Part shown: positions 16,767-57,126 of the stretch, piece by piece
Layout: every line of letters starts with the position of its first letter
Position numbering within the stretch: the first letter of the stretch is position 1
Assembly (NCBI GenBank): GCA_019347895.1
Contig: JAHWKM010000004.1
Location: 1-61,524, forward strand
DNA from: Candidatus Parcubacteria bacterium
Lineage (GTDB): Bacteria; Patescibacteriota; Saccharimonadia; Saccharimonadales; 2-12-FULL-41-12
Reading direction: 5' to 3'
DNA length: 61,524 nt
Notes under the pieces: generated by a model
What the model was told of the DNA's origin: nothing
Database searches by the model: none
Seen by the model: only the letters and a program-made list of their open reading frames with translations
Made by a program: the position numbers and the translations under genes

Positions 16767-17785
16767 CTTTTAACCTCTGGAAATTTTAAGATATTTTTAT
16801 AGATTGCGGCCAGCAATAAAATACCGGCCAAGACCAAAATTCCGCCTACCAGATAATAAATTCCGGCCGCCGCCGCATTAAACTCTCTGATGACGGGGCT
16901 AATTATTTCAGCCACCATTTTGTCATCGGCCGCTGCCGGCAGCAGTTTGCCCGTAGTAAAACTTATAAAAAATGGAGCCAGCAAGGTTATCGCGCCAACC
17001 CCGACCAGTATTTTGGCAATCCGGATCAGCCCCTTTCTTTTATCAATGCTGGCCAGATATACGCCGGCGGCTAACAGGACAGACAAAACAGCTAAAAAAA
17101 CCGGCACTTTCTTGGCTAGCTGGAATTTGTCCGGCAGGTTTGAGTCGTTGCTGAAGACAGGTTCGCCCTCTTCATTTTTAAGCTCTTGGGATTCGAACTT
17201 GGTATCGCCGAGAAAATCAGGGTTATTGGCTAGTTCGGCCTTAGCCTTTTCGGCTTCCGCGGCGACGCTAACGCCTGGCGGCAGGCACTCCAAATTAAAA
17301 ATATCGACGGTATTTGGGTCCAGCTGGCGCAAACGCTGGAAGGTGCATACCGGAAGCTTCACGGCTTTGTCGGCTTCAGCGTCAACAATCTTGCCAATGA
17401 ACTCGTTCCTGGCGTTAGTAGCATCTATTTGAAACTCAGGCCGGCTGGTCTCGCCCTCAAGCCAGGCGTATGTACCGTCAAGGGCCGTCTCTATACTGGT
17501 TTGGAAAAATTGCGGGTTAAAACTATCCAGCGCGGCTTGTTTAACCTGCGGATCGCCGAGGTCTATCTGCGAAGTTTCATTTTGATTTTCTTTTTTAATA
17601 TTTTCATACACAACTCCTGGAATTTTTTCGTATACCCCGCTGTCACTGAGAACGTCCTTCACTTTATTCGGCTTGGCTGCCAAGTAGCTGAATACCGCAG
17701 AAGTTGCCAAAAACAACAAGCTGATTGCCAGCAAATAGGCAAAAACGGCGACCATAAACCACCTGAGGGCTTTTCGGATATTCAT
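16763..17785 (-). CDS. Membrane protein (1+3 TM, extracellular domain with Cys pair)
   Basis: Hydrophobicity pattern; overlaps aroB start. Confidence 0.7.
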   Translation of the reverse strand: MNIRKALRWFMVAVFAYLLAISLLFLATSAVFSYLAAKPNKVKDVLSDSGVYEKIPGVVYENIKKENQNETSQIDLGDPQVKQAALDSFNPQFFQTSIETALDGTYAWLEGETSRPEFQIDATNARNEFIGKIVDAEADKAVKLPVCTFQRLRQLDPNTVDIFNLECLPPGVSVAAEAEKAKAELANNPDFLGDTKFESQELKNEEGEPVFSNDSNLPDKFQLAKKVPVFLAVLSVLLAAGVYLASIDKRKGLIRIAKILVGVGAITLLAPFFISFTTGKLLPAAADDKMVAEIISPVIREFNAAAAGIYYLVGGILVLAGILLLAAIYKNILKFPEVKR

Positions 17786-17868
17786 CCCGTTAGAATTTCC
17801 TCCGGTTGCATCTTAGCGCCATAATTCTCCACTTTATCTTGTTCCGCCAACATTCTAACGGGATTCAT
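17780..17868 (-). repeat. Family A start-codon hairpin element, copy 1
   Basis: ATGAAT-CCCGTTAGAA...TTCTAACGGG-ATGAAT on the minus strand; 28-aa ORF 17868-17782 stops on the ATGA of the downstream gene. Confidence 0.85.
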
Positions 17869-17916
17869 CCACTAATTGTACCGCAATCTTACAAAGGTTA
17901 TAATTGAAACATGACA

Positions 17917-18083
17917 GAAGCCTCCGCACTTGAGTGTCCAATGTATTTTCTCGATGAGCAACGGAGTGAGCTGTACAGGACGTACTGCTCGCGAGTAGCG
18001 CAGTCGAAAAATACATTGGGTGCCAAGAGTGCCTTGCAAAGTCTGGCTTTGCCAGGCTTGGAAAGGCACGGTGCGCAGGTTTC
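17917..18083 (+). repeat. Family B ~170-bp structured element, copy 1
   Basis: CGCACTTGAG...GTAC-loop-GTAC...CCAAGAG...CGGTGCG; 58-aa ORF 17911-18087 overlaps the next ATG. Confidence 0.85.
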
Positions 18084-18269
18084 ATGACTCCGTTTTTCAT
18101 AGCTTTTATTATGGCGGCCGGCGTGACGGCTTGGGTATATGACAAAACCCAGCAGCGCACAGGCAACAATACTTCTTCTTCCGCCACTTTAGCGGCTGCT
18201 GCCGGCGTAATAGTATTCATAATCACTTTAACCATCCTTAGCCTAATTGACGATTATCTAGGCAATTAA
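18084..18269 (+). CDS. Small two-TM membrane protein
   Basis: 61 aa, WVY.K..RTG.N motif between TM helices. Confidence 0.7.
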   Translation: MTPFFIAFIMAAGVTAWVYDKTQQRTGNNTSSSATLAAAAGVIVFIITLTILSLIDDYLGN

Positions 18270-18319
18270 CTCTAAGACAATTAAATCCATCTCTCCTTCG
18301 ATTAATCATAAAAAATAAT

Positions 18320-18347
18320 CAGACTAGCGTACTAGTACGCTAGTCTG
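18320..18347. promoter_or_regulatory. Perfect 28-bp palindrome (operator candidate)
   Basis: CAGACTAGCGTACT|AGTACGCTAGTCTG upstream of an XRE-HAD fusion gene. Confidence 0.5.
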
Positions 18348-18455
18348 TCCGGCCTTCGGTGTTTTTAACTGATTTGTCTAGCCGGTTTAGGCTAATATTT
18401 TTGCTAATTTTCGGGTGCAACTGGTATTATATGGCCAGATAAGGTGGGTAAATAA

Positions 18456-19298
18456 ATGGATGAAAGAGAACTGGCTGCAAAAATTGGTGATGCCCGGCGC
18501 AGCTCAAGTCTAACGCAGCAGCAGCTTTGCCAAAAATCCGGCTTGAGCTACTCTACGCTAGCCAAAATTGAGCGCGGCGCTATCAAGTCCCCGTCGGTCT
18601 TTACCATTCAGCAGATTGCAGAGGCACTGGGAACATCCCTAGACGCTCTTTTAGGTATTGACACCGTTTCAGCTTCAAAACGGCCTAAAAAACGCTCTAA
18701 AAGCGGTGTGGAATTCGTGTACTTTGACATTAACGGCTGTTTAGTCCGGTTTTTTCACCGCGCCTTTGCCGCCGCCGCCCAGGCCACCGGGGCTTCGCCC
18801 GATGTGGTGGAAACGACTTTTTGGCACTACAACGATGCGGTTTGCCGCGGCGAGCTGCCAATGGAAGAGTTTAACGCTATCCTTGCCCGCCAATTTAATG
18901 TAAAAGGTTTCGACTGGATGCCGTATTATATGGCGGCTGTCGACCCGATAAAAGAAACGGCCGAGCTATTGGATTGGGCGCACGAACATTACCGGATCGG
19001 GCTGCTGAGCAATATCATGCCTGGATTTATCGCCGCAATGATTGAAAGCGGAATTTTGCCTGACATAAAATATGACCAAATCATTGATTCCTCAGATGTA
19101 AAAGCTATCAAACCAGAGCCGGAAATCTACAATCTTGCCGCGGAAAAAACCGGCTTGGACCACAAATCCATCATGCTGATAGACGATTCCCGGGCCAATC
19201 TAATGGCCGCCGGTAAACTGGGCTGGCACGTCCTCTGGTTCGACGATTATGATCCTGTTGAATCAGTCAAACGTATCAAAGCCGCCCTGGAATTCTGA
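18456..19298 (+). CDS. XRE-family HTH fused to HAD-like hydrolase
   Basis: LTQQQLC..SGLSYSTLAKIERG HTH; FDINGCL, LSN, KPEPEIY, IDDS motifs. Confidence 0.88.
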   Translation: MDERELAAKIGDARRSSSLTQQQLCQKSGLSYSTLAKIERGAIKSPSVFTIQQIAEALGTSLDALLGIDTVSASKRPKKRSKSGVEFVYFDINGCLVRFFHRAFAAAAQATGASPDVVETTFWHYNDAVCRGELPMEEFNAILARQFNVKGFDWMPYYMAAVDPIKETAELLDWAHEHYRIGLLSNIMPGFIAAMIESGILPDIKYDQIIDSSDVKAIKPEPEIYNLAAEKTGLDHKSIMLIDDSRANLMAAGKLGWHVLWFDDYDPVESVKRIKAALEF

Positions 19299-19315
19299 TT
19301 TAAAAAGAACTTGAT

Positions 19316-20530
19316 TTATAGTTTTTCTACAAATTCTTGGTATGACATGCCTATTTCCTTAAGGACTTTTTTTGTCCCCTTAGGATCTTTAATAAGGCCT
19401 CTACCTAGTGCTGTAGACATGCCTGTTCCCGGGTTATAAATAATTGGATGTTTACCTCCATTTCTCACAATACAACCTAATTGCTCAAATGCGGAAATAG
19501 CTTGGCTTACGGTAAGCCCAGAGGGTATGTCAGCTCTATCTCCGGACTGTTTAGAAGCAGCCTCTTGAGCTTCTCCTAAACCTTTTGGAGGTTTATCTAT
19601 GGTTTTACTTTGCTCGGAACGTCTTGGCTTCTTTCCGTTTTTATCTACCCTGCCACTAGATTGTCCCTTTGCTTCCTCTAAAAGCCCGGCAAGTTCATCA
19701 TTTAGATCCTCTAAAGCCTCTTCTTCCCAGGGCCGATATTGGCGAGACAGCCGTTTCTTGGCTTCCTGCGGCAGTTTATCAATATGTCTTGACGTTACCA
19801 TTTGTCCGAGCTGTTCGGGGTCGCGCAGTGCCGCCAGAGCATTTACTAAATCAATAAGCGCCTCCCGCAAATCTTCTTCGCTGCCATTATCTACTACAAC
19901 ATCGGGTGGTTGCCTTTCAATACCAAATTTTTTAATAGCCCAGCTGGCCATTCTTTTTATAGGACCGTCTTCTATAGGATCGCTTGAAGTTTCTGAAGGT
20001 GGGGGTAATGGTGAATTTAATTCAGTAACAATTTGAGCAGAGGCCTTTGCTTGCTCGCGGAGACCTTTTTTGATGTCTCCCAATGTGCTTCTCAGCTTAT
20101 TTTCGCTGACTAATTGAAGATCGTCCGGTTCATGTCCGCGGATTTTTTCTAAAAAGGTACTTTTGGATTTATTAACAATTTCCCCGTGTCTCTCTTGATA
20201 TTGTGCGCGTTTTTCAGCGTCCATTGCCGGATGTGAGCTTTGATTTGGAGCTTTAGGTACTTCGCCGGGGTATCGCTGTTCAATATCCGACGCCAGTTCA
20301 TCTCTAATTACCGGAAAAATTTTTTCAGTATTTTCAGCAAGTTTTTCCCTGGCATTATCAATGCATTGGGCGTTTGCTGCTTCTTCAATCGTGCTAAGTT
20401 CGGATGCCGCACTAAGGAGGTCTACTGCGGTGAGTTCCGAAAGCGGCGCAACTCCCTCTTCCCTTTGATGTTGAGGTGTTGGGGCGGCCTCAAACCTACT
20501 TTCAGCCGGAAAATCTAATGCTGGCATCAT
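19316..20530 (-). CDS. Orphan helical protein with C-terminal HicA-like domain
   Basis: C-terminus AISAFEQLGCIVRNGGKHPIIYNP...TKKVLKEIGMSYQEF resembles HicA. Confidence 0.6.
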   Translation of the reverse strand: MMPALDFPAESRFEAAPTPQHQREEGVAPLSELTAVDLLSAASELSTIEEAANAQCIDNAREKLAENTEKIFPVIRDELASDIEQRYPGEVPKAPNQSSHPAMDAEKRAQYQERHGEIVNKSKSTFLEKIRGHEPDDLQLVSENKLRSTLGDIKKGLREQAKASAQIVTELNSPLPPPSETSSDPIEDGPIKRMASWAIKKFGIERQPPDVVVDNGSEEDLREALIDLVNALAALRDPEQLGQMVTSRHIDKLPQEAKKRLSRQYRPWEEEALEDLNDELAGLLEEAKGQSSGRVDKNGKKPRRSEQSKTIDKPPKGLGEAQEAASKQSGDRADIPSGLTVSQAISAFEQLGCIVRNGGKHPIIYNPGTGMSTALGRGLIKDPKGTKKVLKEIGMSYQEFVEKL

Positions 20531-20594
20531 ATAGTTTAATTATAGCATAAAACATATTAAAATTCAAGCCTGATAAAATTATTGAAGCGATGAT

Positions 20595-23234
20595 TTAGTC
20601 ACTTTTTTGACTAGCAATGTATGCCGTGAGAGTTTTTAGTTCGGACCTCTTATCTCTTAACTGAGCCTCGGATTCATTAACGAGATTCGAAGGCGCCTTT
20701 TTGGCGTAGCCGGGGTTGCCCAAGCGAACTTCCAGATTTTTTATTGATTCTTTTAGTTCTTTAGAGCGTTCTTGTAGAGACTTCAAGTATTTTTTAGCTT
20801 CCTCATCGTCCACCTCAAACCAAACTGGCTCGGTAGTTTGGGTTAGCTTTAGTCCCCTTCCATCCTCAGTTTTAACTAATGATTCCAACTTGGCCAGTGA
20901 TTTTATTAGAGGTTCGTTGTCGGCCACAATTTGCGAGTTTTTGAACAGCGCGTTTCCGTGCTGTTTGACCAGAGCGGTTTTGATCTGGCGTATTTCACGG
21001 ACTATTTTTTGCACTTGTTCAAATTGTTTGGCTTTTTTAGCGTCAAATTTAACTGGCTTAGGCCACTGGGCGGTGATTAACAATGTGTCATCCTCGGCAT
21101 GAAGGGTTTGCCAAATAGTCTCTGTTATAAACGGCGCGAATGGGTGAGCTAGCTTCAAAATAGTTTCGAGAACATGGTCTAAGACAGTCGAATTTAACTC
21201 GGTTTTGCTGGCTTCGATGTACCAGTCGGCCACATCGTCCCAAATTAAGTGATACATACGATAATAAGCGCCGCTGAAATTAAAATTACTGATTGCCTCG
21301 TTGATTGATTCGCCAGCCTCGTTTAATTTGGCTATTACCCAATGGTCGGCTGCTGTTTTTGGCTCCGGTTGCGAGCCAACAGCTAGTTCAGAGGTGCTGG
21401 CCTCGATGTAGCGGGCGATGTTCCAAAGCTTGTTGCAGAAGTTCCGGTTGGCTTCGGCCTTAGCGGTTCCCCAATTTTGATCGTTGCCCGGCGACACGCC
21501 CATGATAAGTGCTAGCCGCAGGGAGTCAGCGCCGTATTTTGGTATGACACTCAGCGGATCGACAATGGATTCCGGTCGGCTTTTGCTCATTTTCTTGCCG
21601 TCTTCGGCCCGGATCATACCGTGCAAATAAACCTTTTTAAACGGTACTTCCCCGGTGACGTAAGTCGTAGCCAAAATCATTCGAGCCACCCAAAAAAATA
21701 AAATATCCCAGCCGGTTTCCATAACATCTGTCGGGTGGTATTTTTGAAAGTCCCGGCTGTCCTTTAGAATTGCTTCAAGCGAAAGCGAGCCGTCAACAGC
21801 AAGCTTCGGGTCAACCAGAGTACTCCATGTCCAAAGCGCCGATGAAAACCAAGTATCCAGGGTATCGGGATCCTGCTGCCATTCATGAAAACCTTCGCTT
21901 TGATCAGTTGGGGGCGCTATTCCCACGTAAGTTTCTTCCCTATTGTCAGTGTCGATTCTGTACCAAACCGGGATTCTGTGGCCCCACCATATTTGGCGGG
22001 AAATGCACCAGTCGCGCAGGCTGTCGATCCAGTGGAAATAAGTTTTTTCAAACCGTTTTGGCACAATCTCAATGTCGCCTTCCCTTATCACAGATTGCAT
22101 AACTTCTTTCAGGCTGTGTTTTTTGCCTTTCCAGTCCACTATTTTTTTATTGACGTCAACGAACCACTGCAGTTTGATTTGCGGCTCGATAACACCTTTG
22201 CCTCGGTCATTTAGGGCGATGTTATGCACATATTCTTCATCGATACTGACCAGCAAACCCTTCTTGTTTAATTTTTCAACAATTTTTGGCCGGGCTTCGG
22301 CGATGTTTATGCCCTCAAACTCGCCGGCAATCGGCAAAAGCTTGCCGTGGAAATCAATAATTTGCTCTTTATCCAGTCCATGTCGCTGGGCAATTTCAAA
22401 ATCTACATGGCTATGAGCCGGCGTGATTGTCATAACACCGGTACCGAACTTTGGATCTACCGCCTCGTCCTTGATAACAGTGGCTGTAATAGGCCCGTTA
22501 ATCCACTCCACATCAATAGTGTCGCCGTGTTTGTATTGAGCGTAGCGTTCATCATCAGGATGCATAATCACATATTTGTCGCCGAATTTGGTTTCCGGCC
22601 GGGCGGTGCCGATCTCAAACGGGCCGTATTTTAATGTATAGAATTTGGATTTTTCTTCTTGGTAGACTAGTTCATCGTCTGAGACGGTTGTTTGCAGGTT
22701 CGGATCCCAGTTGACGATGCGGTAACCTCTGTAAATTAATCCATCCTCATACATTTTAATGAACGTTTCATTAACGCAGCGGTTCAAAGAGTCATCCAAG
22801 GTGTATCGTGTCCGTGACCAGTCGGCACTGGCGCCAATCGCCCGCATTTGTTCCAGCATGGTATTGCGGCTATTGCCGACAAATTCCTTGGTTCTTTTTA
22901 AAAATTCGTCTCGCCCAATCTGGTGCTTGTCGGTTCCTTCGTCAGACAGCTGTTTTTCAATAAGTGCGTTTACCGCTAGGGCCGCGTGGTCCGTGCCGGG
23001 CAGCCAAAGTGCGTCCTTACCTTTTAGCCTGGCGTGGCGGATCATTATGTCTTGCAGGGTTAAAAATAGCGCGTGGCCGATACTGAGCGTACCGGTCTCA
23101 TTCGGCGGCGGCATACTGATGACAAACGGCTCTTTGCCGCTTTTAGGATTAGCATAAAATGCCCCGCTGCGCTCCCACAGCTTATAAATATCTTTCTCGT
23201 ACTGCTCAGCCTCGTAAGTTTTAGGAAGTCTCAT
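20595..23234 (-). CDS. valS: Valyl-tRNA synthetase
   Basis: PPPNETG..SIGH, DWCISRQIWWGH, KMSKS, C-terminal coiled coil; ATG at 23234 after TATACT. Confidence 0.97.
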   Translation of the reverse strand: MRLPKTYEAEQYEKDIYKLWERSGAFYANPKSGKEPFVISMPPPNETGTLSIGHALFLTLQDIMIRHARLKGKDALWLPGTDHAALAVNALIEKQLSDEGTDKHQIGRDEFLKRTKEFVGNSRNTMLEQMRAIGASADWSRTRYTLDDSLNRCVNETFIKMYEDGLIYRGYRIVNWDPNLQTTVSDDELVYQEEKSKFYTLKYGPFEIGTARPETKFGDKYVIMHPDDERYAQYKHGDTIDVEWINGPITATVIKDEAVDPKFGTGVMTITPAHSHVDFEIAQRHGLDKEQIIDFHGKLLPIAGEFEGINIAEARPKIVEKLNKKGLLVSIDEEYVHNIALNDRGKGVIEPQIKLQWFVDVNKKIVDWKGKKHSLKEVMQSVIREGDIEIVPKRFEKTYFHWIDSLRDWCISRQIWWGHRIPVWYRIDTDNREETYVGIAPPTDQSEGFHEWQQDPDTLDTWFSSALWTWSTLVDPKLAVDGSLSLEAILKDSRDFQKYHPTDVMETGWDILFFWVARMILATTYVTGEVPFKKVYLHGMIRAEDGKKMSKSRPESIVDPLSVIPKYGADSLRLALIMGVSPGNDQNWGTAKAEANRNFCNKLWNIARYIEASTSELAVGSQPEPKTAADHWVIAKLNEAGESINEAISNFNFSGAYYRMYHLIWDDVADWYIEASKTELNSTVLDHVLETILKLAHPFAPFITETIWQTLHAEDDTLLITAQWPKPVKFDAKKAKQFEQVQKIVREIRQIKTALVKQHGNALFKNSQIVADNEPLIKSLAKLESLVKTEDGRGLKLTQTTEPVWFEVDDEEAKKYLKSLQERSKELKESIKNLEVRLGNPGYAKKAPSNLVNESEAQLRDKRSELKTLTAYIASQKSD

Positions 23235-23280
23235 GAATGATAAGTATACCACCTCTGTTCTTTGTGCCAAAGAAGGAAGG

Positions 23281-23862
23281 CATATTCTTCTGATCAAGGA
23301 ACCAATTTCGGCGGTACTTCGTACCTACCCCGAGTTCCTTTTTTGTCTGAAAAAAGGAACCGAAAAAGCAGACAGGCGGCTTCCAGTTCTTGAGGAGTTC
23401 ATTGTCAAGAAGCACAATGCTCGGAAAACTCAGCTTGCCCTTTATTAATTTTTAGCCTCGGCAAGCTTCAGACACTTCCTCGCGAGAAAATGTGCTTTTG
23501 ACATTCACTCATCAGGAACTTCCAGAGCCTGGATAAAAGCAGATGAGAAAAACTTGTTTTTCTCAGGTAATAGATAATGGAAATTCGACTTTTGGGTTTG
23601 GGCATAGAGAGACGTCCTGATTGGCGAATGTCAAAAGCACAATTATTCGCTGCAGAAGCGAAGCGAGGCAGTGTTTAAGCCCCGCCATCCTATGGATTTA
23701 TTAAGGCGGGGTGAGTTTACCGAGCATTGTGCTCTTTGACAATGAGACAGTCAAGATGACTCGACGCCCAATCGGTTTGGAATACCTTTGCCGAAACAAA
23801 GGTATTGATTTGCTTCTTTATCTAAAGAAGTATGGGCTTGGTTCTTCAGCAGAGAACATATG
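23281..23862. repeat. Family C large nested-palindrome element (long form)
   Basis: Nested inverted repeats; GTTCCTTTTTTGTCTGAAAAAA..AACCGAAAAAGCAGACAG shared with ~59800. Confidence 0.8.
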
Positions 23863-24020
23863 AGGTTTCACGTGAAATTAGGGTAATTTAACTCACAGCT
23901 CTTTTTAAAAAGCTTGAAGTTAAATCACTCTAACCAGTTAGTTTTGACGCGATCTTACCAGTGGAGCAAGACAGTCCTTATAAACTTTTTGTTTTCACTT
24001 ATTAGTTTAAATGCTTGCGC

Positions 24021-25153: not shown

Positions 25154-25247
25154 ATGAATCCCGTTAGAACCCATACGGTTAAATCCTGCAAAATTTCTCA
25201 GCAATTACCCAATAAATTAATTTTATATGAGTTCTAACGGGATGAAT
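25154..25247 (+). repeat. Family A start-codon hairpin element, copy 2
   Basis: ATGAAT-CCCGTTAGAAC...GTTCTAACGGG-ATGAAT; 27-aa ORF 25154-25237 ends 4 nt before the murE ATG. Confidence 0.85.
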
Positions 25248-29946: not shown

Positions 29947-30026
29947 TTCTATACGCTCCAAAACCCTATATGGTCTGGCTCAATTAAATACAACCTCTGG
30001 TTTAAAAACCCCCTGTTGATATTTAC

Positions 30027-30044
30027 GTACTAGTATACTAGTAT
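30027..30044. promoter_or_regulatory. TrpR operator overlapping the -10
   Basis: GTACTAGTATACTAGTAT vs consensus GTACTAGTTAACTAGTAC; TTGATA-17-TAGTAT, ATG 6 nt downstream. Confidence 0.85.
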
Positions 30045-30050
30045 GATGAT

Positions 30051-30338
30051 ATGTCTGAATCATTCAAGAATAAGAAAGATAGCAGCGGGTTTAATGAATT
30101 TGTTGATTTGGTATTAGCTATCAAGGACAGGGAACTGTTGGAAGATTTTTTGCTGGGTATTACCACTGAAGCAGAACGGGTAGCAATAGCCCACCGGCTG
30201 CAAATTATAAAAAAACTCCTGGACGATAAAACCCAATACGAAATTGCCGAGGAGATGGGTGTCGGCGTGGCTACCGTTACCCGCGGAGCGAAAGAGTTAG
30301 CTCAAGGCCGATTCAAGGTTTTACGAAGGCAAAAATGA
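30051..30338 (+). CDS. trpR: Trp repressor family regulator
   Basis: T.AER.AI..R, TQYEIAEEMGVGVATVTRG. Confidence 0.85.
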   Translation: MSESFKNKKDSSGFNEFVDLVLAIKDRELLEDFLLGITTEAERVAIAHRLQIIKKLLDDKTQYEIAEEMGVGVATVTRGAKELAQGRFKVLRRQK

Positions 30339-31552
30339 GCGAATCGGGTTTTTTTGGAGCCAATAAGTACGGCGGAAGATACGTTCCTGAGATGCTTCAG
30401 GGCGAGCTGGCTAGCTTGGCAAAAGCATATGACCAACTCAAAAATGATCTGGCATTTCAAGCCGAGCTTGAACAACTGCATACTAATTATAATAGCCGGC
30501 CAACTCCATTAGTACTGGCCAAAAACTTGAGCGAATCTATCGGCGGGGCCCAAATTTATCTAAAAAATGAAGGCTTAAACCACACGGGAGCGCATAAAAT
30601 AAACCATTGCCTGGGACAGGCGCTGGTAGCCAAAAAAATGGGCAAAAAGCGCTTGATTGCCGAAACCGGAGCCGGCCAGCACGGCTTGGCGACGGCTACG
30701 GTGGCCGCCAAGTTCGGCCTGGAATGCACAGTTTACATGGGCGAGATTGACGTGGCCCGCCAGCAACCCAACGTTATTTTAATGGAACTTTTAGGTGCTA
30801 AAGTTGTGCCGATTACACACGGTTCAAAAACCCTCAAAGACGCTGTCAGCGGTGCGATTCGTGATTGGTTGCAAAACAGCGATGACACGCATTATGTCAT
30901 CGGTTCTTGTCTGGGGCCAGACCCTTATCCGCGTATGAACCGGGATTTTCAGGCAATTATTGGACGGGAAATAAGGCAGCAGTTGGGTAAAAATCCGGAT
31001 TGCATTATTGCCTGCGTGGGCGGTGGCAGCAACGCCCTCGGCGCATTCACGGCCTTTTTGAACCAACACGCAGTAAAACTTATCGGCGTGGAAGCCGGCG
31101 GCAAATCACCGGCTAATGGCCAGCATGCCGCCAGATTTCCGGACGCTAAAATCGGGATAATGGAGGGGTATAAATCCTATTTTCTGCAAGACGAAGATGG
31201 TAATAGCGCCCTAACTCACAGTGTGGCGGCCGGGCTGGACTACATAGGCATAGGCCCCGAGCTGGCTGAGCTTCATGATAGCGGCCGGGTGGAATTCGTC
31301 CGGGCCAGCGATAAAGAATCCTTAAAAGCGGTAGAACTTTTGGCCAAAACCGAGGGAATTATTCCGGCGCTGGAGTCAGCCCATGCGGTAGCTGAAGCCG
31401 TGAAAAGGGCAAAAATTATGAAATCCGAAGATGCAATAGTCGTGAACGTATCCGGCCGCGGCGATAAGGATATATTTACCTTAGCCAGGCACTTTTCACC
31501 AAAAGATTTTAAAGCATTTTTGCAACGGGAATTGGCAAGTTATGATATTTGA
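30335..31552 (+). CDS. trpB: Tryptophan synthase beta chain
   Basis: LNHTGAHKIN, AETGAGQHG, GGGSNA, IPALESAHA, SGRGDKD. Confidence 0.97.
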   Translation: MSESGFFGANKYGGRYVPEMLQGELASLAKAYDQLKNDLAFQAELEQLHTNYNSRPTPLVLAKNLSESIGGAQIYLKNEGLNHTGAHKINHCLGQALVAKKMGKKRLIAETGAGQHGLATATVAAKFGLECTVYMGEIDVARQQPNVILMELLGAKVVPITHGSKTLKDAVSGAIRDWLQNSDDTHYVIGSCLGPDPYPRMNRDFQAIIGREIRQQLGKNPDCIIACVGGGSNALGAFTAFLNQHAVKLIGVEAGGKSPANGQHAARFPDAKIGIMEGYKSYFLQDEDGNSALTHSVAAGLDYIGIGPELAELHDSGRVEFVRASDKESLKAVELLAKTEGIIPALESAHAVAEAVKRAKIMKSEDAIVVNVSGRGDKDIFTLARHFSPKDFKAFLQRELASYDI

Positions 31553-31556
31553 ATCT

Positions 31557-31653
31557 AGCTACAATCTAAGCGATTTTCGGCGACTCTTTACAGGTGAGCT
31601 GAAAGCTCAGCCTGTGGCGTTTGCAATCACCAAAAATCGCTTAGATTGTAGCT
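31557..31653. mobile_element. MITE-like element between trpB and trpA
   Basis: 21-bp perfect TIR AGCTACAATCTAAGCGATTTT; 40-aa ORF 31542-31664 spans it. Confidence 0.75.
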
Positions 31654-37422: not shown

Positions 37423-37460
37423 TTTGCAAAAATGAATAAGCATGTTATAGTTGTTAAACA

Positions 37461-37594
37461 ATGAATAAACTGCAATTACAAACAGCACAAAGCCGCCGCA
37501 GCTCACGTACACCCGGGAGTTGTCCTTGTAATTGTTAAAAAATAAATAATTAAGTTCCCAGACAGCTCCCTCAACAACAGGGAGCTTTTTATTT
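37461..37594 (+). promoter_or_regulatory. Leader peptide (25 aa) and transcription attenuator
   Basis: MNKLQLQTAQSRRSSRTPGSCPCNC* (37461-37538); antiterminator 37515-37524/37561-37570; terminator AGCTCCCT..AGGGAGCT-TTTT. Confidence 0.7.
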
Positions 37595-37830
37595 AACTTT
37601 TTACTTTTATGAACTATACATTTATCAAATTTGATTCCACCAATCCAGAGCACCGCGAAGCCGCAAGTTCAATCGCAGCTTGGTCCGCCGAATCAAGTAC
37701 AAAGCGTTTCGAAGGCCAAGGTTACTCAGGGGCGGGGGAAAGGCAACCGCCATCCCCAACTGGCTGCGACACTATAGTAAGTTTCCAAATCCAATAAATA
37801 TTTAAGCTTATGACTGATATACTAAAACCA

Positions 37831-39539: not shown

Positions 39540-40349
39540 ATGGCTATTTTACTTAGACATCCGCATTTGAGGTTCCGGCTAGGCGCCAGCGAAGCACGGA
39601 GTGAGCCGTACAAGTTGTATGGTGAGCGAGCACTGGAACTAGCAACGCCGCCGGAGTCCAAAAGTATTGGCAGGGTTAAGGGCTCTGCCCGTGAGCAGGA
39701 CGATACGGTGCGGATGTCTAAAGCGGTGGTTTTTGACTTCGATGGGACGCTGGCTGATACGGAAGGGTTTTTAAGACAAATCTACGGTGATATTGCCCGT
39801 GAAAAAGGTTGGGAACCGTTAAGCAAACGGACCTACCGCCGGCTCTTTACCGCCAGTATTTGGGAGGCGGCCCGCTGGGCGAGGTTTCGTCCGTGGCGGC
39901 TGCATCATTTAGTCAGTGAAAGCCGCACCCGCCTGCAGGCCCGCGCTAATGAAATTAAAATCTTCGACGGACTTAAGAATGTGGTCAATGAGCTTCACAA
40001 ATCCGGGTACGATATTTATATGCTCAGTCGCAACTGGCAGAGCACAGTCCAAATAGTAGTAGATAAGAACGGCCTGGGTGATAAAGTAGTGGTTCTTGAG
40101 AAGCCGGGTTTTTTTACGAAACATAAAAGCGTGAAAAAACTTTTAGTCCAGAAAAAATATGAAAAAAAGCAAACCTGGATGGTCGGGGACGAAGTGCGCG
40201 ATCTCTACGCGGCTAAACGGGCGGGCGTACCTTTTATCGCCGTTGTTTGGGGGTTTCAGGACAAAAAAACCCTTAAGGCTTTTAAGCCGGCGGCATTGGC
40301 CCAAAAGCCTCAAGAAATTCTTGATATAATCTTAAAGAGCAAGGATTAA
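39540..40349 (+). CDS. HAD family phosphatase with in-frame element insertion
   Basis: FDFDGTL, VGDEVRD, WGF; 55-codon insert after residue 5. Confidence 0.88.
   Translation: MAILLRHPHLRFRLGASEARSEPYKLYGERALELATPPESKSIGRVKGSAREQDDTVRMSKAVVFDFDGTLADTEGFLRQIYGDIAREKGWEPLSKRTYRRLFTASIWEAARWARFRPWRLHHLVSESRTRLQARANEIKIFDGLKNVVNELHKSGYDIYMLSRNWQSTVQIVVDKNGLGDKVVVLEKPGFFTKHKSVKKLLVQKKYEKKQTWMVGDEVRDLYAAKRAGVPFIAVVWGFQDKKTLKAFKPAALAQKPQEILDIILKSKD
39554..39720 (+). mobile_element. Family B element, copy 2 (TA-flanked, in frame)
   Basis: TA-GACATCCGCA...TGCGGATGTC-TA; excision restores MAILLKAVVFDFDGT. Confidence 0.85.
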
Positions 40350-46304: not shown

Positions 46305-46598
46305 CGAAGTAATTTCCTTATCTGCTTTTCTTTCAGCATTGAGAAAACCGATTGGCTTGAATCAGGTTTGTCCGAGTCACTGAAGCAAAAGCTAGTCCAG
46401 CTCGCTCCTTAAATAAAATAGAGATGGACCGGCCCCGGAGGGACGTTTTTTGCTTCACGGACAATCCTGGTATCTCAAGGCAGTAGTGTTTTATCACCTG
46501 CTGCGGCACTTTTTGCCTACTTTTTGTTGCTGCAGAGAAAAAGTAGGAATTCGGTTCCTTATTGAAGGAACGATGGCTTGGTTCTTCGCCAGAAGAAC
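46305..46598 (+). repeat. Family C structured element
   Basis: Aligns along its length to the reverse complement of 59776-60034, with compensatory changes. Confidence 0.85.
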
Positions 46599-47343: not shown

Positions 47344-47378
47344 CCTTAAAATAATAACACTGTATAATATTGAAAATG

Positions 47379-47551
47379 ATCAGAAATTTCACACTTGAGT
47401 GCAAAACGGAATTTATTGGAGAGCAGCGGAGTAAAACGTACAAGTGGTACGTTGCACGAGCAGCGCAGCCAAAATTTGCGTTATGTGCCAAGAGCGGCTT
47501 GCAAGAGCAAACTGGTTTTGGGCTGGAAAGGCGCGGTGCGTAAGTTCTGAT
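47379..47551 (+). repeat. Family B element, copy 3
   Basis: CACACTTGAG...CCAAGAG...CGGTGCG; 55-aa ORF 47376-47543 ends 6 nt before the orn ATG. Confidence 0.85.
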
Positions 47552-49580: not shown

Positions 49581-49611
49581 CCCAAGCCTTAAAATTTTTT
49601 AATACAACCTT

Positions 49612-49938: not shown

Positions 49939-50050
49939 TTTTTATTTTTTCCTTAACTTTTACATATTAGCACAAGGTTGCGCTTATGTCAAATATGAAT
50001 TTATGTTTCCTCTGTTTTAGATTTACGTTAGTAAATATATAATAACACGA

Positions 50051-50820: not shown

Positions 50821-50855
50821 AGCCTTTGCAAAATATTTTTAAGTGTTGGACTTGT

Positions 50856-51854
50856 TTACTGGGTAGATTCGGGTTTGTCTAGCAATAAATCTATCTGGCC
50901 GAAGGCAGTTTCTATAATTTGTTTTTCGCTGGCATTGGAGCTTTCATAAGCCGCCTGCAGCTGCAGGCGGTAGTTATTTAGTTGCTGATCAAGCAGCGCC
51001 TGGTAGGTTTCGTCAAATTTCCCGCTTTGTTCACCCTGGACTAATAAGGCATCACTTTCGGCGTTTTGGCTGGCTTCAAGTTTTTTCTCCACCTTTTTAA
51101 GTCCCCGGCCGGCCAAAGCGCCAATCAGTTCCAACTGAGACGAACGCATAGTTAACTGGATGTTATTAACCTTAAAAAGTAGGTCGCGGTCGCCAATTTT
51201 CTCCTCGGCAGATTCAGCCACCCGGATAATTTCATGTTGGGTTTGGGCAATTTCCAGCAGCCTGTCCCGGTGGTCGCTGCCAGCGCTGTTTAAAAATGAA
51301 AACACGGTAGAAACCAATATGATTAAAACAATTAATGCCCCTCCCGCGAACATGGCGCGCTTTAAAGTACTGGCGTTGCCAAGGTCAAGCAAAGGCTTTT
51401 TAGGCGGCTTTTGAGGATTCATTATAAATTCATAATCGCTGTCCGGGGGCGAACCGCTCGATCCTTGAGTGTTGTAATCTGGCGGGGCTTGCGCTGATAC
51501 GGTACTGCGTAAAGACCGTCGGGAGCTATTATTATTCGGCAGTACCACCTGGGTTTGCACCGGCCTGTAAGCCTGAGCGGAAGGAGCGCTGGTTCTAAGC
51601 GGTGCAGCCGGAGCTGAACTGGCAGCTCCATAAATAACGTTTTGATGCATGTAAGGCTTAACATATTGCTGCATATGGGCCGGCAAGTTTTTTTGCATTT
51701 GAGCAGTCATCTCATTTTCGATGCGGGCCGGCATACGGGCGCCGCTGTTTTGATATTTTTTAAGGTGAGCCGGCATAGTCCGGTCCATATGGGCCGCCAT
51801 GGATTTTTGTACGGCCGGCGGGATGTAGGCGTTTCTGTTTTCACTGGACGACAT
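50856..51854 (-). CDS. Single-TM hypothetical protein with N-terminal (M/L)PAH repeats
   Basis: YEFIMNP motif, TM, helical extracellular domain. Confidence 0.7.
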   Translation of the reverse strand: MSSSENRNAYIPPAVQKSMAAHMDRTMPAHLKKYQNSGARMPARIENEMTAQMQKNLPAHMQQYVKPYMHQNVIYGAASSAPAAPLRTSAPSAQAYRPVQTQVVLPNNNSSRRSLRSTVSAQAPPDYNTQGSSGSPPDSDYEFIMNPQKPPKKPLLDLGNASTLKRAMFAGGALIVLIILVSTVFSFLNSAGSDHRDRLLEIAQTQHEIIRVAESAEEKIGDRDLLFKVNNIQLTMRSSQLELIGALAGRGLKKVEKKLEASQNAESDALLVQGEQSGKFDETYQALLDQQLNNYRLQLQAAYESSNASEKQIIETAFGQIDLLLDKPESTQ

Positions 51855-51937
51855 AGCTTAATTAAACCATAAGCAACTCTTCCACGGGAAGCCCTCTATA
51901 CTTGATACTTACTGCTTACTGCTAGATACTAATTTCT

Positions 51938-53701
51938 ATGGATGCGGTCAGCGAGGTCAAAGCCCGGCTTAGTATAGAAGACGTTATTAGCGAATACGTC
52001 CGCTTGAAGCGAGCCGGCAAAAATTTTAAAGGTTTGAGCCCGTTTTCAAATGAAAAAACGCCAAGTTTTGTGGTTAGTCCCGAAAAACAGATTTGGCACG
52101 ATTTTAGTTCGGGGCGCGGCGGCGATATTTTTACGTTCATACAAGAAGTAGAAGGAGTGGATTTTAAAGGCGCCCTGGAACTTTTATCCCGCAAGGCCGG
52201 AGTTGATCTGGAAGATTATCGCAAGGGTAGCGATAATAGATCCAGGTTCGACAAAGAGCGTCTGTACAAGGCGCTGGATATGTCGGCCAAATTCTATCAA
52301 AGGCAGCTAAAGGATAGTAATCAGGCCTTGGAGTACATTATAAAAAAACGCGGCTTTGCCAAGCAGACGGTTTTGGATTTCCAGCTGGGATATAGCTCCG
52401 AGAACCAGCGGGGGCTGACTGACTATTTATTGCAAAAAGGTTTTTCCGAGCAAGAGCTGAAACTTTGCGGGCTGGTTAGTACGGCCAGGGGGTTGAATGA
52501 TATGTTCCGCGGCCGGCTGATGATACCGCTGCACGACCAGTTTGGCAAAGTCATCGGTTTTACGGCTCGGATTTTAAACGAGCAATTATCCGGCCCAAAA
52601 TATATTAATACACCCTCCACGCCGCTGTACGATAAGAGCCGGCATATATATGGACTGCACCTGGCTAAGCAAGGTATTCGCACCAAGGACTATTCGGTAA
52701 TTGTAGAAGGCAATCTAGATGTAATCGCTTCGCATCAGGCCGGACAAAATCAGATTGTAGCCACGGCCGGCACTGCCTTAACCGAATATCAAATGAAAGC
52801 TCTGTCCCGTTTGTCGCCCAATGTGCGCCTGAGTTTTGACCAGGATAAAGCCGGCCTTGAGGCCGCCGAGAGAGCCATACCGATCGCTAGCAAAGCGGGC
52901 GTAAACCTGAGCATCATTACTCTTTCATCGGGCAAAGATCCGGATGAGCTTATCAAAAAGGACCCCAAACTTTGGACCGAAGCCATCGACAACGCCGATT
53001 ACGCCGTCGACTGGTTAATAAACCGCTACAAAGAGAAGCTTAATATCTCCACTGCTCAAGGCAAGCGTGAATTCAGCGACGTGATGATAAATTTGATAAA
53101 AACACTTGAAGACCCTGTCGAGCAGGATCATTATGTGAATGTGGTCTCGCAGGAAGCGGCCGTTGACCCTTCGGCCATCCGTCAGAAATTATTTACGGAC
53201 GGCAAATCCATCGACGAAAAACTAAAGCAAATAAGCAGGCCCGCCAATACATTGGACCAAAACAGCCAGCACCAAATAAACAGGATCGACAAATTCCTAA
53301 GTTTGAGCTTAATGCAGCCCGATATAAGACATTATTTGGATTTACTAAGTCCAGATATGCTAATAACCGACGAGCAAGTTAAATTGCTTAAATTTCTAAA
53401 GGAAAATCCGGAATTTGACCCCAGCGCGGCCGATAAAAAGCCTGAGGATGCGACCCAGGCGGAAGACTATGTTAAAATACTAGTGTTACTATTTGAGCAA
53501 TTATACGCCTCAGTTGATGCGCAAGAACTTCACTACGAAGCTCAGCGCCTGAGAGCCGAGACAATCAAATATTTTGTAGAACAACAAAAGGCCAATTTAT
53601 TTGCGCTGCAACATCAAAGTGATGAAGCCGAGCAAACCAAGATTCTCTCTAGTGTCAGGGAACTTGATAAACTACTAAGCCAAACGAAAAGAATTGATTA
53701 A
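51938..53701 (+). CDS. dnaG: DNA primase
   Basis: EKTPSF, FRGRLMIP, PKYINT, VEG..D, FDQD.AG, KDPDE. Confidence 0.97.
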   Translation: MDAVSEVKARLSIEDVISEYVRLKRAGKNFKGLSPFSNEKTPSFVVSPEKQIWHDFSSGRGGDIFTFIQEVEGVDFKGALELLSRKAGVDLEDYRKGSDNRSRFDKERLYKALDMSAKFYQRQLKDSNQALEYIIKKRGFAKQTVLDFQLGYSSENQRGLTDYLLQKGFSEQELKLCGLVSTARGLNDMFRGRLMIPLHDQFGKVIGFTARILNEQLSGPKYINTPSTPLYDKSRHIYGLHLAKQGIRTKDYSVIVEGNLDVIASHQAGQNQIVATAGTALTEYQMKALSRLSPNVRLSFDQDKAGLEAAERAIPIASKAGVNLSIITLSSGKDPDELIKKDPKLWTEAIDNADYAVDWLINRYKEKLNISTAQGKREFSDVMINLIKTLEDPVEQDHYVNVVSQEAAVDPSAIRQKLFTDGKSIDEKLKQISRPANTLDQNSQHQINRIDKFLSLSLMQPDIRHYLDLLSPDMLITDEQVKLLKFLKENPEFDPSAADKKPEDATQAEDYVKILVLLFEQLYASVDAQELHYEAQRLRAETIKYFVEQQKANLFALQHQSDEAEQTKILSSVRELDKLLSQTKRID

Positions 53702-53716
53702 TGAGATGGAGTTATT

Positions 53717-53805
53717 ATGAGTCCCGTTAGAACTTTCAAAAAACCTAAATTTAAGATAGAATATACCACCAAACCTAATTTTACAGGAGTTCTAACGGGA
53801 TGAGC
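53717..53805 (+). repeat. Family A start-codon hairpin element, copy 3
   Basis: ATGAGT-CCCGTTAGAAC...GTTCTAACGGG-ATGAGC; 28-aa ORF 53717-53803 stops on the rpoD ATGA. Confidence 0.85.
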
Positions 53806-54900
53806 GAAGATCAGCAAAAGGTAACGCCAGAGGAAGCCAAAAAAGATCTTTTGGCGCTGGCTAAAAAAGACGGCAAAATCGAACAGGAAGCCATATTTGC
53901 CCTTATTCCTGAAACACCGGAGAATGCCGAGGTTTTGGACAGCCTGTATACCGAATTAGCTGATTCCAGGATCGAAGTTACCGGCAATTCGGTTAATGGG
54001 GTGGCCGACGATTGGGTGGCCGAAGACGAAGAAGAGTTGGTATTGGACGACAAAATCTATATGGACGATATTGCCGATGATTCAGTCCGGCTTTATTTGC
54101 GTGAAATCGGCAAAATCCCGCTTTTGAAACCTGACGAGGAACTGGCGCTAGCCCAAAGAGTCGTAGCCGGCGAGAAAAAAGCTAAAGACCAAATGGCCGA
54201 AGCTAACATGCGGTTGGTTGTTTCTATCGCCAAGCGCTACGTTGGCCGTGGATTAGACCTGCTGGATTTAATCCAAGAGGGAAACACCGGTTTGCTGCGG
54301 GCCGTTGAGAAATTTGATCCGGACAAAGGTTTCAAATTCTCCACATACGCCACCTGGTGGATTCGCCAGGCGATTACCCGGGCCATTGCCGACCAAGCCA
54401 GAGTTATCCGCATTCCCGTGCATATGTTTGAGACCATTAACAAGCTGCTTCGAACCCAGCGCCGATTGACTCAAGAACTTAACCGTGAGCCTACCAACGA
54501 AGAAATCGCCGAAGCCATGGAAATGGAAGTCGAGAAGGTGGAGCATATCATGAAGATCAAACAGGATATTCATTCCTTGGACGCTTCCGTGCGTGACGAT
54601 GAAGAAGACAGTGTACTGGGCGATTTCATCGAGGACGAGGATACTATTACACCTGAGGAATCAGCTACCGGCAGCTTGCTGAAAAGCCACGTCAAAGACA
54701 TGCTTTCCGGCCTAACCGAGCGAGAACAAAAAATTTTGAAACTGCGTTTTGGCTTGGAAGACGGCAAAAGCCACACGCTGGAAGAAGTCGGCCAGGAATT
54801 TATGGTAACCCGCGAACGAATAAGGCAGATAGAGGCTAAGGCTTTAGCTAAACTGCGCAAGCATAAAGATGCCCGCAAGCTCCACGATTACATCAAGTAA
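53800..54900 (+). CDS. rpoD: Primary sigma factor
   Basis: [41 protein letters not shown]. Confidence 0.98.
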
Positions 54901-55068
54901 GACCTGTGCCGCGCCAGCCTGCTGATGAGCGAAGCTCATCACTCCGCTGGCGCTCTTGGACTCATATACGATTTTATTCTGCGATGCTCAGTAGCAGTAC
55001 TTTTTGTACAGCTACTTCCACTTCTCAAATAGAAATCACACCTGAGCCTCAAGCACAGGCCTTACTTG
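54894..55068 (-). repeat. Family B element, copy 5 (antisense, at the rpoD stop)
   Basis: Minus strand TGTGCTTGAG...AGCTGTAC-AAAAA-GTACTGCT...CCAAGAG...CGGCACA. Confidence 0.8.
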
Positions 55069-55143
55069 CAGCTTGTGCCCGTTCGTTTTTTTTACTAACT
55101 TTGAAATGTATACTGTAAAGAATGAAAACAGTTAGGCTGGTTA

Positions 55144-55308
55144 TGACCTTCACACTTGCGTGCACAGTGCATTTTCTCAACGAGCAACGGACTAAGCTGT
55201 ACAGGCGGTACTGCTTAGGAGTAGCACAGCTGAAAAATGTGCTGGGTGCCAAGAACGACTTGCAAAGTTGGACTTTGTTCAGCTTGGAAAGTCGTGGTGT
55301 GGAGGTCA
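55144..55308 (+). repeat. Family B element, copy 4
   Basis: Homologous to 17917-18083; 63-aa ORF 55122-55313 stops on the ATGA at 55310. Confidence 0.85.
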
Positions 55309-55309
55309 G

Positions 55310-55876
55310 ATGAAGATTATTGGATTGAGCGGGACCAATGGTAGCGGCAAGGATACGGTTGCTGAATTTCTAAAGGACGAGCATGGGTTTTATATAGCGT
55401 CTGCTACTGACATGCTGGAAGCAGAACTAAAAAAACTTGACCGCCCCACCGATAGAACTCATAAACGCGAGCTAGGCAACCAATGGCGCCGGGATCAAGG
55501 GTTGGGCGTAATAGTCCAGCGGGCAGTCGAAGAAGCAAAAAAAGCCGGCTTTGATAAAGTGGTCGTTGGTAGCCTGCGCAACTCTGGTGAAGCGGACCTA
55601 GTACATGCTCTAGGCGGCAAGGTAATTTGGGTAGACGCCGATCCGCTAGTGCGCTACCAAAGAGTTATCAGCGGCAAGCGCGGCCGCATAGAAGATAGTA
55701 AATCATATGAAGAATTTCTAAGCGACGAAGAAGCCGAAATGAACGAACAAGGCGACGCGGCCACTCTAAGCATGGCCGAAGTAAAAGCCAAAAGCGATAT
55801 TTTTATAGAAAACAATTATGAGGATATTGCCAAATTAAAAACTGAACTTAAAAAAGCATTAGCAATTGTTAAATAA
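55310..55876 (+). CDS. P-loop nucleotide kinase (dephospho-CoA/dNMP kinase-like)
   Basis: IIGLSGTNGSGKDT; SLRN.GE; VDAD..VRY.R. Confidence 0.8.
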   Translation: MKIIGLSGTNGSGKDTVAEFLKDEHGFYIASATDMLEAELKKLDRPTDRTHKRELGNQWRRDQGLGVIVQRAVEEAKKAGFDKVVVGSLRNSGEADLVHALGGKVIWVDADPLVRYQRVISGKRGRIEDSKSYEEFLSDEEAEMNEQGDAATLSMAEVKAKSDIFIENNYEDIAKLKTELKKALAIVK

Positions 55877-55903
55877 GAACATTTAATTATAATAACAATC
55901 ACT

Positions 55904-56290
55904 ATGCATACTCTCGAAATCACAAAAACTGTCGAGGGTGAAGGAGCGCCAACTTTCCCCAGTCCTGCCATTGGTGTTGTTGGCAGAGACAGAGATACAG
56001 AAGAAGCTAGGCTTCATGCAGTTTTTCCGGTTGAAGATTCAGCATTTGCCAGTTACGTTGCAGATCTATTGGCAAAAGGCGTGGACATACTAGCTACAGA
56101 GGAAATTACGCCTGAAAAGACAGTCGAACTTTGCAATAAAGACTGGTCAGCGAGAGTACTGTTTTTAAGTGGAGTCGAAATTGTTCCCGTAGATGAAGAA
56201 AACAACATGCATACGGCTATATATAGTGAAACAGTTCCAGATGAACAAAGAGGCTTGCCGTCTCTGTCCTTACCCTTGAATCAACGCTAA
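55904..56290 (+). CDS. Orphan hypothetical protein
   Basis: 128-aa ORF with TATAAT upstream. Confidence 0.6.
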   Translation: MHTLEITKTVEGEGAPTFPSPAIGVVGRDRDTEEARLHAVFPVEDSAFASYVADLLAKGVDILATEEITPEKTVELCNKDWSARVLFLSGVEIVPVDEENNMHTAIYSETVPDEQRGLPSLSLPLNQR

Positions 56291-56299
56291 AATGTTAAA

Positions 56300-56890
56300 G
56301 TGATTGTTGATTCCGACATTACTTTTGGCCAGGCATTGGCGCAGTATCCGGAGAAGCCGAAAGTGCCTAGAAAGATTTTGGATCAGCTGAAGTTGGTTGA
56401 TGTTGAGTATATTAGTTTTGATCACAAGCTGCACCGCGGGCAGATTGTTATCCATAAATATTTAGTTGATGAGGTTAAGATGATGTTTGAGTTGGCGGTT
56501 GAAGTTAAGTTTCCTATTGCTAAAGTTGTGCCGAATTCCCATCCGGATTACAAATGGGATACCAAAAAATTGGTGATTGAGAATAATGTTACAGGCGGTT
56601 TTGGCTATAGAAAAATTAAAGGTACCGACAAACTATCTCTTCACTCTTACGGCAGGGCGATAGATATAAACCCGTTGCAAAACCCATATATTCGCTATAA
56701 AAATAGCGAAGAGATAGTTTTCCCGCCAAATACGAAGTGGAATCCTAAAAGACCGGGAACACTGCATAAAAATAATCCGCTGGTTAAGTTTATGGAATCA
56801 AAAGGTTGGGAATAGGGCGGACGCTGGACAAAAACAGACGGAGTGATCGACTACATGCACCTCCAAAAATCGCCTGATGCAAAAACGTGA
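56300..56890 (+). pseudogene. M15 family peptidase with internal amber stop
   Basis: SLHSYGRAIDINP motif; TAG at 56813-56815 replaces W of W.WGG.W, and the frame continues GGRW...DYMHLQ to TGA at 56890. Confidence 0.85.
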
Positions 56891-56958
56891 AAGGATAAAC
56901 CCTTCACGGTTAAGTGAGTAAAAAGTTTATCTGCTCACTATCTAGCGTATACTAAAAG

Positions 56959-57125
56959 TAGGACCTGTCCCAAGATAATTTTCGAGGATAAAAAATGATG
57001 ATTTTTATTCAAAACTTACAAACCGCGACAAAGCGTAATCATAGTTACGGTGCGAAGTGGTTTGATTGGTTTTGGGAAAAAAGGGCGATTTCTAGCCCGA
57101 AAACCTTATTTTGGGACAGGTTCTA
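56959..57125 (+). mobile_element. TA-flanked MITE-like element in the polA 5' region
   Basis: TA-GGACCTGTCCCAAGATAA...TTATTTTGGGACAGGTTC-TA; internal SD and 43-aa ORF 56995-57126 abutting the polA ATG. Confidence 0.8.
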
Positions 57126-57126
57126 A

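Follow-up and report, generated by a model that had tools for sequence, protein, structure and literature searches.

Palindromic inserts at gene starts of a Saccharimonadales genome and the reading frames that bridge them

How can a gene keep its start when a strong hairpin sits on the start codon? This question is raised by a 61,524-nt stretch of DNA (the window), which is contig C22 of the 907-kb, 27-contig genome of a Candidatus Parcubacteria bacterium (G000), and in which palindromic inserts of four families (A to D) occupy the starts of rpoD, polA, murE, orn, trpA and other genes. Our analysis suggests that these inserts are selfish mobile elements, probably tolerated at gene starts through translational coupling. 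The open frames that bridge them are more than chance. The pattern is partly mechanical, with the 3′ end of the insert supplying a stop and a new ATG or GTG, and partly selected, in that the frame of the host ATG is kept open. In the mechanism we propose, a ribosome would start at the old ATG, read through and unfold the insert, terminate at its 3′ end, and there re-initiate on the new start or merely expose it; copies that break this coupling at essential genes would be lost.

Inserts and bridging frames in the window

The initial annotation had described nine inserts from four families, eight of them spanned by a short open reading frame (ORF) that stops on or just before the next ATG and the ninth in frame with its gene. 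All nine and their ORFs were confirmed, as were the downstream genes that it named (rpoD, polA, murE, orn and trpA), together with a HAD phosphatase gene. To these we add a tenth insert on the rpoD stop codon, the stop and restart signals held in the element ends, an orientation rule, and a long form that carries a nuclease. All nine inserts fold into hairpins better than shuffled sequences do (z −2.6 to −8.6), and at 7/7 folded loci most of the 12 nt ahead of the new start are predicted to pair (unpaired 0.0–0.3). The inserts and ORFs are as follows.

17786..17862, minus strand: family A insert of 77 nt with ends CCCGTTAGA...TCTAACGGG and ATGAAT on each flank (from sequence and fold)
17782..17868, minus strand: 28-codon bridging ORF, 6 nt after TACAAT (17880-17875); its TGA overlaps, as ATGA, the ATG of a 340-aa gene (17785-16763)
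17915..18083, plus strand: family B insert of ~170 nt with a three-way junction fold (from profile and fold)
17911..18087, plus strand: 58-codon bridging ORF, 6 nt after TATAAT (17899-17904), in ATGA overlap with a 61-codon gene at 18084
25160..25241, plus strand: family A insert at the murE start (from sequence; empty site in relative G007)
25154..25237, plus strand: 27-codon bridging ORF, 6 nt after TATCAT; the right terminal repeat supplies its stop (TAA), 4 nt before the ATG of murE (25242)
31557..31653, plus strand: family C hairpin at the trpB-trpA junction (from fold; one related copy on contig C5)
31542..31664, plus strand: 40-codon ORF that overlaps the end of trpB by 11 nt and stops 3 nt before trpA
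39553..39721, plus strand: family B insert that lies in frame among the first codons of the HAD phosphatase gene (ATG 39540)
47379..47551, plus strand: family B insert at the orn start
47376..47543, plus strand: 55-codon bridging ORF, 7 nt after TATAAT (47363-47368), with its TAA 6 nt before the orn ATG (47550)
53723..53799, plus strand: family A insert at the rpoD start, with GGAG just within its right end
53717..53803, plus strand: 28-codon bridging ORF led by a Shine-Dalgarno (SD) sequence (GGAG 5 nt upstream), in ATGA overlap with rpoD (53800)
54894..55069, minus strand: family B insert that lies antisense over the stop codon of rpoD, with the final codon and the stop of that gene inside its outer stem (from profile and fold)
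55144..55308, plus strand: family B insert before a kinase-like gene (55310)
55122..55313, plus strand: 63-codon bridging ORF, 7 nt after TATACT (55109-55114), in ATGA overlap with that gene
56958..57125, plus strand: family D hairpin on the old leaderless polA start, with a −10 box at 56948-56953 (second copy on contig C26)
56995..57126, plus strand: 43-codon ORF with its start 37 nt into the family D insert, after an internal GAGG, and its stop directly (0 nt) before the ATG of polA

The second family D copy, on contig C26, has the same layout as the polA copy, with the ORF starting inside the insert behind a GAGG of its own. The in-frame family B copy at 39553-39721 contains a second in-frame ATG (39714) in its 3′ arm, from which the N-terminus would resemble that of the orthologs. 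Most ORFs had been said to start 6–7 nt after a −10 box. This is right for five of nine first ATGs, which stand at that distance behind a TANNNT box (17868, 17911, 25154, 47376 and 55122), and wrong for the rest: 53717 is SD-led and follows dnaG, 31542 overlaps trpB, 39540 follows argS, and 56995 opens within its insert. The rpoD, trpA and HAD phosphatase inserts lie inside operons. Across the genome, in our own calls of 971 genes, 823 starts are ATG, and 109 of them have a −10-like box 6–8 nt upstream; at other distances such boxes number about 8 per position. The same gene set has an SD peak 5–8 nt before starts; leaderless genes are a real minority in this genome, not the rule. With so few starts behind a −10 box, and with bridges also present within operons, the initial idea that the arrangement depends on a leaderless-rich genome finds no support.

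Empty sites in relatives show that the first ATG marks the old start, kept at its leaderless or operon position. The comparison of empty with filled sites that the initial annotation had proposed found empty ones at murE, orn, the 55310 gene and polA, while the orthologs of the genes at 17785 and 18084 lay outside the stretches compared. At murE, relative G007 has a single ATGAAT with the same upstream sequence. Starts free of an insert lie 7–8 nt behind a −10 box in 5/5 relatives for orn, in 5/5 for the 55310 gene, which is leaderless in them, and in 4/5 for polA; in the fifth polA relative (G018, locus L204) the start holds another small hairpin, which is spanned by a bridging ORF of its own and repeats the first ten codons. 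Related contigs from a soil run, which may be the sample that the genome came from, join across the polA insert, with the ATG at the leaderless position, and, in another case, across the orn insert. At rpoD, family A ends are absent from the 170 nt upstream in 29 relatives (one locus incomplete). For trpA no empty site was found, the single ortholog recovered (G006, L202) being itself filled by a different, bridged hairpin insert at trpB-trpA. In two relatives (L013, L017) the dnaG-rpoD gap holds AT-rich palindromic stretches unlike families A to D.

Family A: ends that rebuild a start

For family A, a scan of species genomes leads to an estimate of ~6,100 stretches with its ends, in Patescibacteria, Planctomycetes, Omnitrophota, Cloacimonadota and others. 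The terminal repeats of the element are 10 nt long, and its target duplication covers 4 nt of the site R-YNNR-Y. Among 143 distinct copies, the outermost base agrees with the inverted repeat by 16 to 2 in informative cases, and the four next flanking positions repeat directly in 112, 93, 92 and 105 copies, against 93, 42, 38 and 90 expected; on these flank counts, 2-nt and 6-nt duplications were abandoned for one of 4 nt. Where the target reads ATGNRY, insertion with this duplication lets the first ATG persist and makes a second.

The right end, TCTAACGGG-ATGA, gives TAA, TGA or read-through across the three frames. Since this terminal repeat followed by ATGA fixes the stop, the stop-to-ATG distance is mechanical in family A, and we discarded it there as evidence. 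The initial annotation had wished to compare this distance with controls; for family A that measure falls away, and what does exceed chance is the open interior. The free variable is thus the 40–80-nt interior, for which dinucleotide shuffles give the expectation. The old start looks into an open frame in 18/31 copies against 8.2 expected (p 1e-4), and in 14/26 against 7.4 with genome G000 left out (p 0.004), p values that, like all those for families A and B, are overstated because the copies are kin. The other sense frames are open in 16/62.

Genome G000 contains seven family A copies, six of them directly before a gene. Four of these six are fully bridged, one has an ORF that stops 16 nt early, and one lacks the first ATG. 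Depending on site definition, starts make up 3.6–27% of the tolerated matching sites in this genome, and six of the seven copies lie there (p 2e-8 to 2e-3); for this excess, targeting and selection are indistinguishable. The 143 copies divide into 48 at starts, 33 in frame in genes (29 of a frame-keeping length) and 62 elsewhere.

A metagenome scan for family A ends 248–308 nt apart, from which we estimate ~2,600 such stretches, revealed a long form. Among 119 distinct long elements, 72 have an ORF of at least 60 codons; searched against Pfam, 65 of these encode a GIY-YIG nuclease. The nuclease ORF ends at the TGA of the right end in 44 elements and at its TAA in 14, and in 34 of the 65 a start codon with a long ORF follows directly. 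A same-order set of 28 nuclease loci, gathered with one such protein, shows the layout at closer range: 15 have both ends, 13 of these being 272 nt long, whereas eight lack one or both ends and five were unparsed. All but one of the 15 two-ended loci stand directly before a gene of at least 162 codons; 13 have ATG or GTG on both sides, and 13 end in an ATGA overlap. A length of 272 nt puts the nuclease into the frame of the host ATG, and a −10-like box closely precedes many copies.

The sole gene of the ~272-nt form is thus a GIY-YIG nuclease of ~85 residues that starts at the host ATG and whose stop overlaps the rebuilt one. Because long-form nuclease ORFs run from host ATG to rebuilt ATG, the bridge is, judged by this architecture, the normal design of the gene-bearing element. 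The nearest solved structures are the UPF0213 proteins 1zg2 and 1ywl, and no NCBIfam model matched the nuclease above cut-off. The architecture also suggests that the nuclease moves the element. The long form would then borrow the promoter and start codon of its host and repay the host by coupling, and short copies would move in trans. Short copies were ruled out as plain deletions of the nuclease gene: 0/140 interiors resemble it, against 20/20 in a held-out control, so that the two forms share their ends only. At two loci (L639, at G007:C1 ~80000-80400, and L641, in G173), a nuclease-bearing element has a short copy directly behind it, in tandem at one start codon.

Candidate movers were also sought in genome G000. 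Six small GIY-YIG genes were rejected, since their neighbours are tRNA or other RNA genes and family A ends are missing; such stand-alone genes, next to tRNA genes or other sequence resembling RNA genes, occur at C26:26432, C5:16067, C25:43478, C21:2407 and C1:10720. Two Y1-transposase loci were rejected because their flanking repeats differ. A Y1 transposase gene, REP/RAYT-like, lies between GCAAGGCC-type inverted repeats at C20:46728-47360 (L232).

Family B: frame and orientation

A profile search of genome G000 gave 41 family B hits, which were merged by hand to 38 loci and, after five contig-end or fragmentary ones had been dropped, left 33. Of these, 19 immediately precede a gene, 17 in sense and 2 in antisense orientation, and four are in frame. 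Every one of the 19 is spanned by an ORF from a start at most 45 nt off, and the nearest ATG is open in 16/17; at 12 control loci, 9/36 sense frames are open and any open start is found in 3/12. The stop (TAG or TAA) and the new ATG or GTG lie in or just behind the 3′ arm. From N-terminal motifs, we take the host genes to include der, guaA, purD, mnmA and glmS. Two frames are in use, and the open frame is the used one, the third being shut by a conserved TGA; in the four copies of this genome that use phase 1, only frame 1 is open. Internally deleted and nested copies still keep the frame. Two family B copies have other small hairpins nested in them (C21:6134-6381 and C26:31398-31600), the C21 frame being open from the host ATG to the next gene, and one copy lies in a tRNA gene leader (C26:26077-26235), its frame open and its start codon absent.

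Outside this genome, a covariance model finds family B in 107 of 151 genomes of the order (one of them, G062, unpublished) and in four genomes outside it within a phylum-wide sample of 150; in viral contigs, 0/120 pattern hits matched the profile. Our out-of-sample set was taken from other genomes by best score and not at random; it comprises 116 full-length copies, 39 of them sense before a gene. Here the nearest ATG reads through in 25/34, against 7/35 among unclassed copies (Fisher p 1e-5). Of 28 bridges, 26 end −11 to +7 nt from the next start. Twelve of the 39 have no bridge. For 20 copies the ATG is in phase 0; 19 of them have an open frame 0, and in 15 no other frame is open. The initial proposal that ribosomes translate through the insert and restart is supported to this extent: the frame tends to be open specifically where a host start lies upstream, as the proposal would predict.

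The 3′ end of family B appears to face genes, sense at starts and antisense at stops. A gene start lies at the 3′ end of 39 copies and at the 5′ end of one, while a gene stop lies at the 3′ end (antisense) of 47 copies and at the 5′ end of 11. The outer stem has 14–15 pairs and a sharp end, and its outer half is copy-specific (paired 0.7–0.95 within a copy and ~0.3 across copies). At rpoD it lies over the conserved final codon and the stop of the gene. This suggests that one arm was copied from the target, perhaps at insertion or later by template switching. A carrier gene was found at none of 187 family B loci, where the lone GIY-YIG match was the tRNA-linked gene of genome G000.

Alternatives and known systems

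The alternative that survives best, although we consider it unlikely, is that the short ORFs are by-products: the start is mimicked or duplicated by the insertion, and the host gene starts afresh from an SD sequence or a promoter that lies in the insert or behind it, uncoupled from the ORF. Several observations weigh against coupling, and part of them speak for this alternative directly. Besides the fixed stop of the family A end, 13/31 family A frames stop inside the insert and form no full bridge, and 13 more start-class copies lack the first ATG. An SD-like word occurs near the right end in 15/43 start-class copies, against 3/43 on the opposite strand, and independent initiation is therefore possible. 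Across other phyla most family A copies lie off starts (48/143 at starts). In family B outside genome G000, a −10 box separates insert from gene in four of the unbridged copies, eight more (8/35 gene-start copies) have neither a spanning ORF nor such a box, and frame 1 is open in only 6/13 copies whose nearest ATG is in phase 1. The claim that inserts survive only by bridging is not supported, given the 8/35 and the 13/31. As for mobility, no carrier gene was found for families B, C or D, genome G000 has no long family A copy, the six small GIY-YIG genes there are without family A ends, and short family A interiors are unlike the nuclease gene.

For those copies that are unbridged or could start independently, the by-product explanation likely holds. 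It does not account, however, for the openness of the host ATG's frame alone, for the excess of open family A interiors, or for the pairing predicted at 7/7 loci for most of the 12 nt that precede the new start.

A second alternative, raised by the initial annotation, is that the host has co-opted the inserts as regulatory leaders, either attenuators or sensors. The covariation of the family B fold is very strong and speaks for this: in its three-way junction, 47/50 pairs have changed on both sides, 90% of cells are paired, and neither any of 500 shuffles nor any slid control matches this covariation, which is inflated by kinship and by a structure derived from the same sequences. Two of the genes also carry independent bridges in relatives (polA in G018, trpA in G006), which points the same way. 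The fold is kept equally, though, in antisense, intergenic and in-frame copies, and its presence in the first two makes it more likely to serve the spread of the element than host regulation. The host genes are unrelated, the two frames yield unrelated peptides, copies also lie antisense at stops and before tRNAs, orthologs in close relatives are without inserts, and Rfam matches none of them. Regulation is accordingly an improbable account.

It is more improbable still that the insert is spliced out of the message or bypassed by the ribosome to restore the original protein: the outer stem does join the two gene parts, and both sides often carry matching ATGNN words, but a removed segment would need neither an open frame nor a new start, no intron family matched, and there is no stop just after the first codons, whereas in bypass of the gene 60 type of phage T4 a stop codon comes right after the take-off codon and the frames here are open to the 3′ end of the insert.

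Translational coupling thus remains the probable reason why these inserts are tolerated. A broader and more doubtful proposal goes beyond it: the long form of family A may be a minimal, 272-nt class of mobile element, moved by a lone GIY-YIG protein of ~85 residues, with targeting of starts, takeover of the host promoter and start codon for making the nuclease, and hand-back of the ribosome through ATGA. Around it there would be satellites without the gene and at least three unrelated hairpin families convergent on neutralising themselves, one of which would repair starts or stops according to its orientation. If coupling is right, it would be a general way in which selfish DNA can persist in essential genes, beside introns, inteins and in-frame fusion of the kind known from Rickettsia palindromic elements (RPEs), and the 272-nt element would offer a direct test of whether a lone GIY-YIG nuclease drives transposition. 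Gene callers in such genomes would misplace starts and call spurious small proteins at insert sites.

Elsewhere in the window, separate long mosaic hairpin repeats (23334-23770, 46323-46549 and 59800-60017) lie between or after genes and off start codons, with many copies in the genome. A match at 10490-10581 resembles a flavin mononucleotide (FMN) riboswitch but stays below the gathering score (54 bits, E 1e-9). The long structured leader before argS (37446-37800), with repeated AT-rich boxes and a terminator-like hairpin, may be a T-box or an attenuator. Before trpB, an operator-like palindrome (30026-30050) recurs inverted at 18315-18339, and the short ORF at 30030-30340 presumably encodes a TrpR-like protein, judging by its motif.

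Searches for a known identity were negative: Rfam gave no match over any window insert (E ≤ 1), none of the nine peptides matched NCBIfam, and we found no description of these families in Patescibacteria in a literature whose subscription papers were thinly covered. Bacterial MITEs (miniature transposable elements with inverted repeats; Correia, ERIC, RUP) are short, non-coding, bounded by terminal inverted repeats and transcribed as hairpins, according to the accessible text of PMC2229807 and PMC10969869. Family A shares with them its terminal inverted repeats and target duplication of 4 nt. Its long partner, however, encodes a GIY-YIG protein in place of a DDE or Y1 transposase, the complementary arms of family B are specific to each copy and a constant duplication is lacking there, and the rebuilding of a start codon is absent from the MITE descriptions in those accessible texts.

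RPEs are palindromic repeats of 100–170 nt in a small genome, some of them fused in frame in genes, as far as the accessible parts of PMC10969869, PMC3767692 and PMC2229807 describe. The present inserts are likewise palindromic and, in a minority, in frame in genes (4/33 family B loci and 33/143 family A copies), but in the majority of coding-strand copies the insert closes with a stop and a restart instead of fusing to the gene. The RPE1 model TIGR01045 has no match in genome G000 (E ≤ 10).

The long form resembles Ssn, described in the accessible text of Chenal et al. 2025 (PMC11893778) as a GIY-YIG gene between inverted repeats that is likened to an insertion sequence and accompanied by many hairpin repeats (NTS/SRM) without the gene. 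A single-domain GIY-YIG gene flanked by inverted repeats is common to both. The NTS consensus printed there is unlike the family A ends, its repeats are rarely found in genes, and that text describes neither start-codon targeting nor coupling; in both systems mobility is deduced rather than seen.

For the coupling itself, the initial annotation knew of no such system, and here it was mistaken. As the accessible text of a 2025 review (PMC12548453) has it, mycobacterial interspersed repetitive units (MIRUs) are short, apparently mobile repeats that insert on start codons; their internal ORF is coupled at −4 nt to the gene, which is little affected, and the same review sets out two models of coupling, RNA unfolding and scanning. 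The inserts described here share with MIRUs the position on a start codon and an internal ORF that is probably coupled to the next gene. They differ in being strong hairpins of four families, also found at leaderless first genes, spaced at −11 to +7 nt, antisense at stops, and in one family accompanied by a nuclease-bearing long form. MIRUs, as Supply and colleagues reportedly described them in 1997, are without dyad symmetry, whereas all nine inserts here are hairpins. The inserts thus work like a MIRU yet are not shown to be one, and the principle is already in print. They would serve as natural reporters for re-initiation after leaderless translation, which the accessible text of that review (PMC12548453) names as an open question. 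If our reading is right, the MIRU idea also gains a statistical test, in the form of selection on the frame and not on the peptide.

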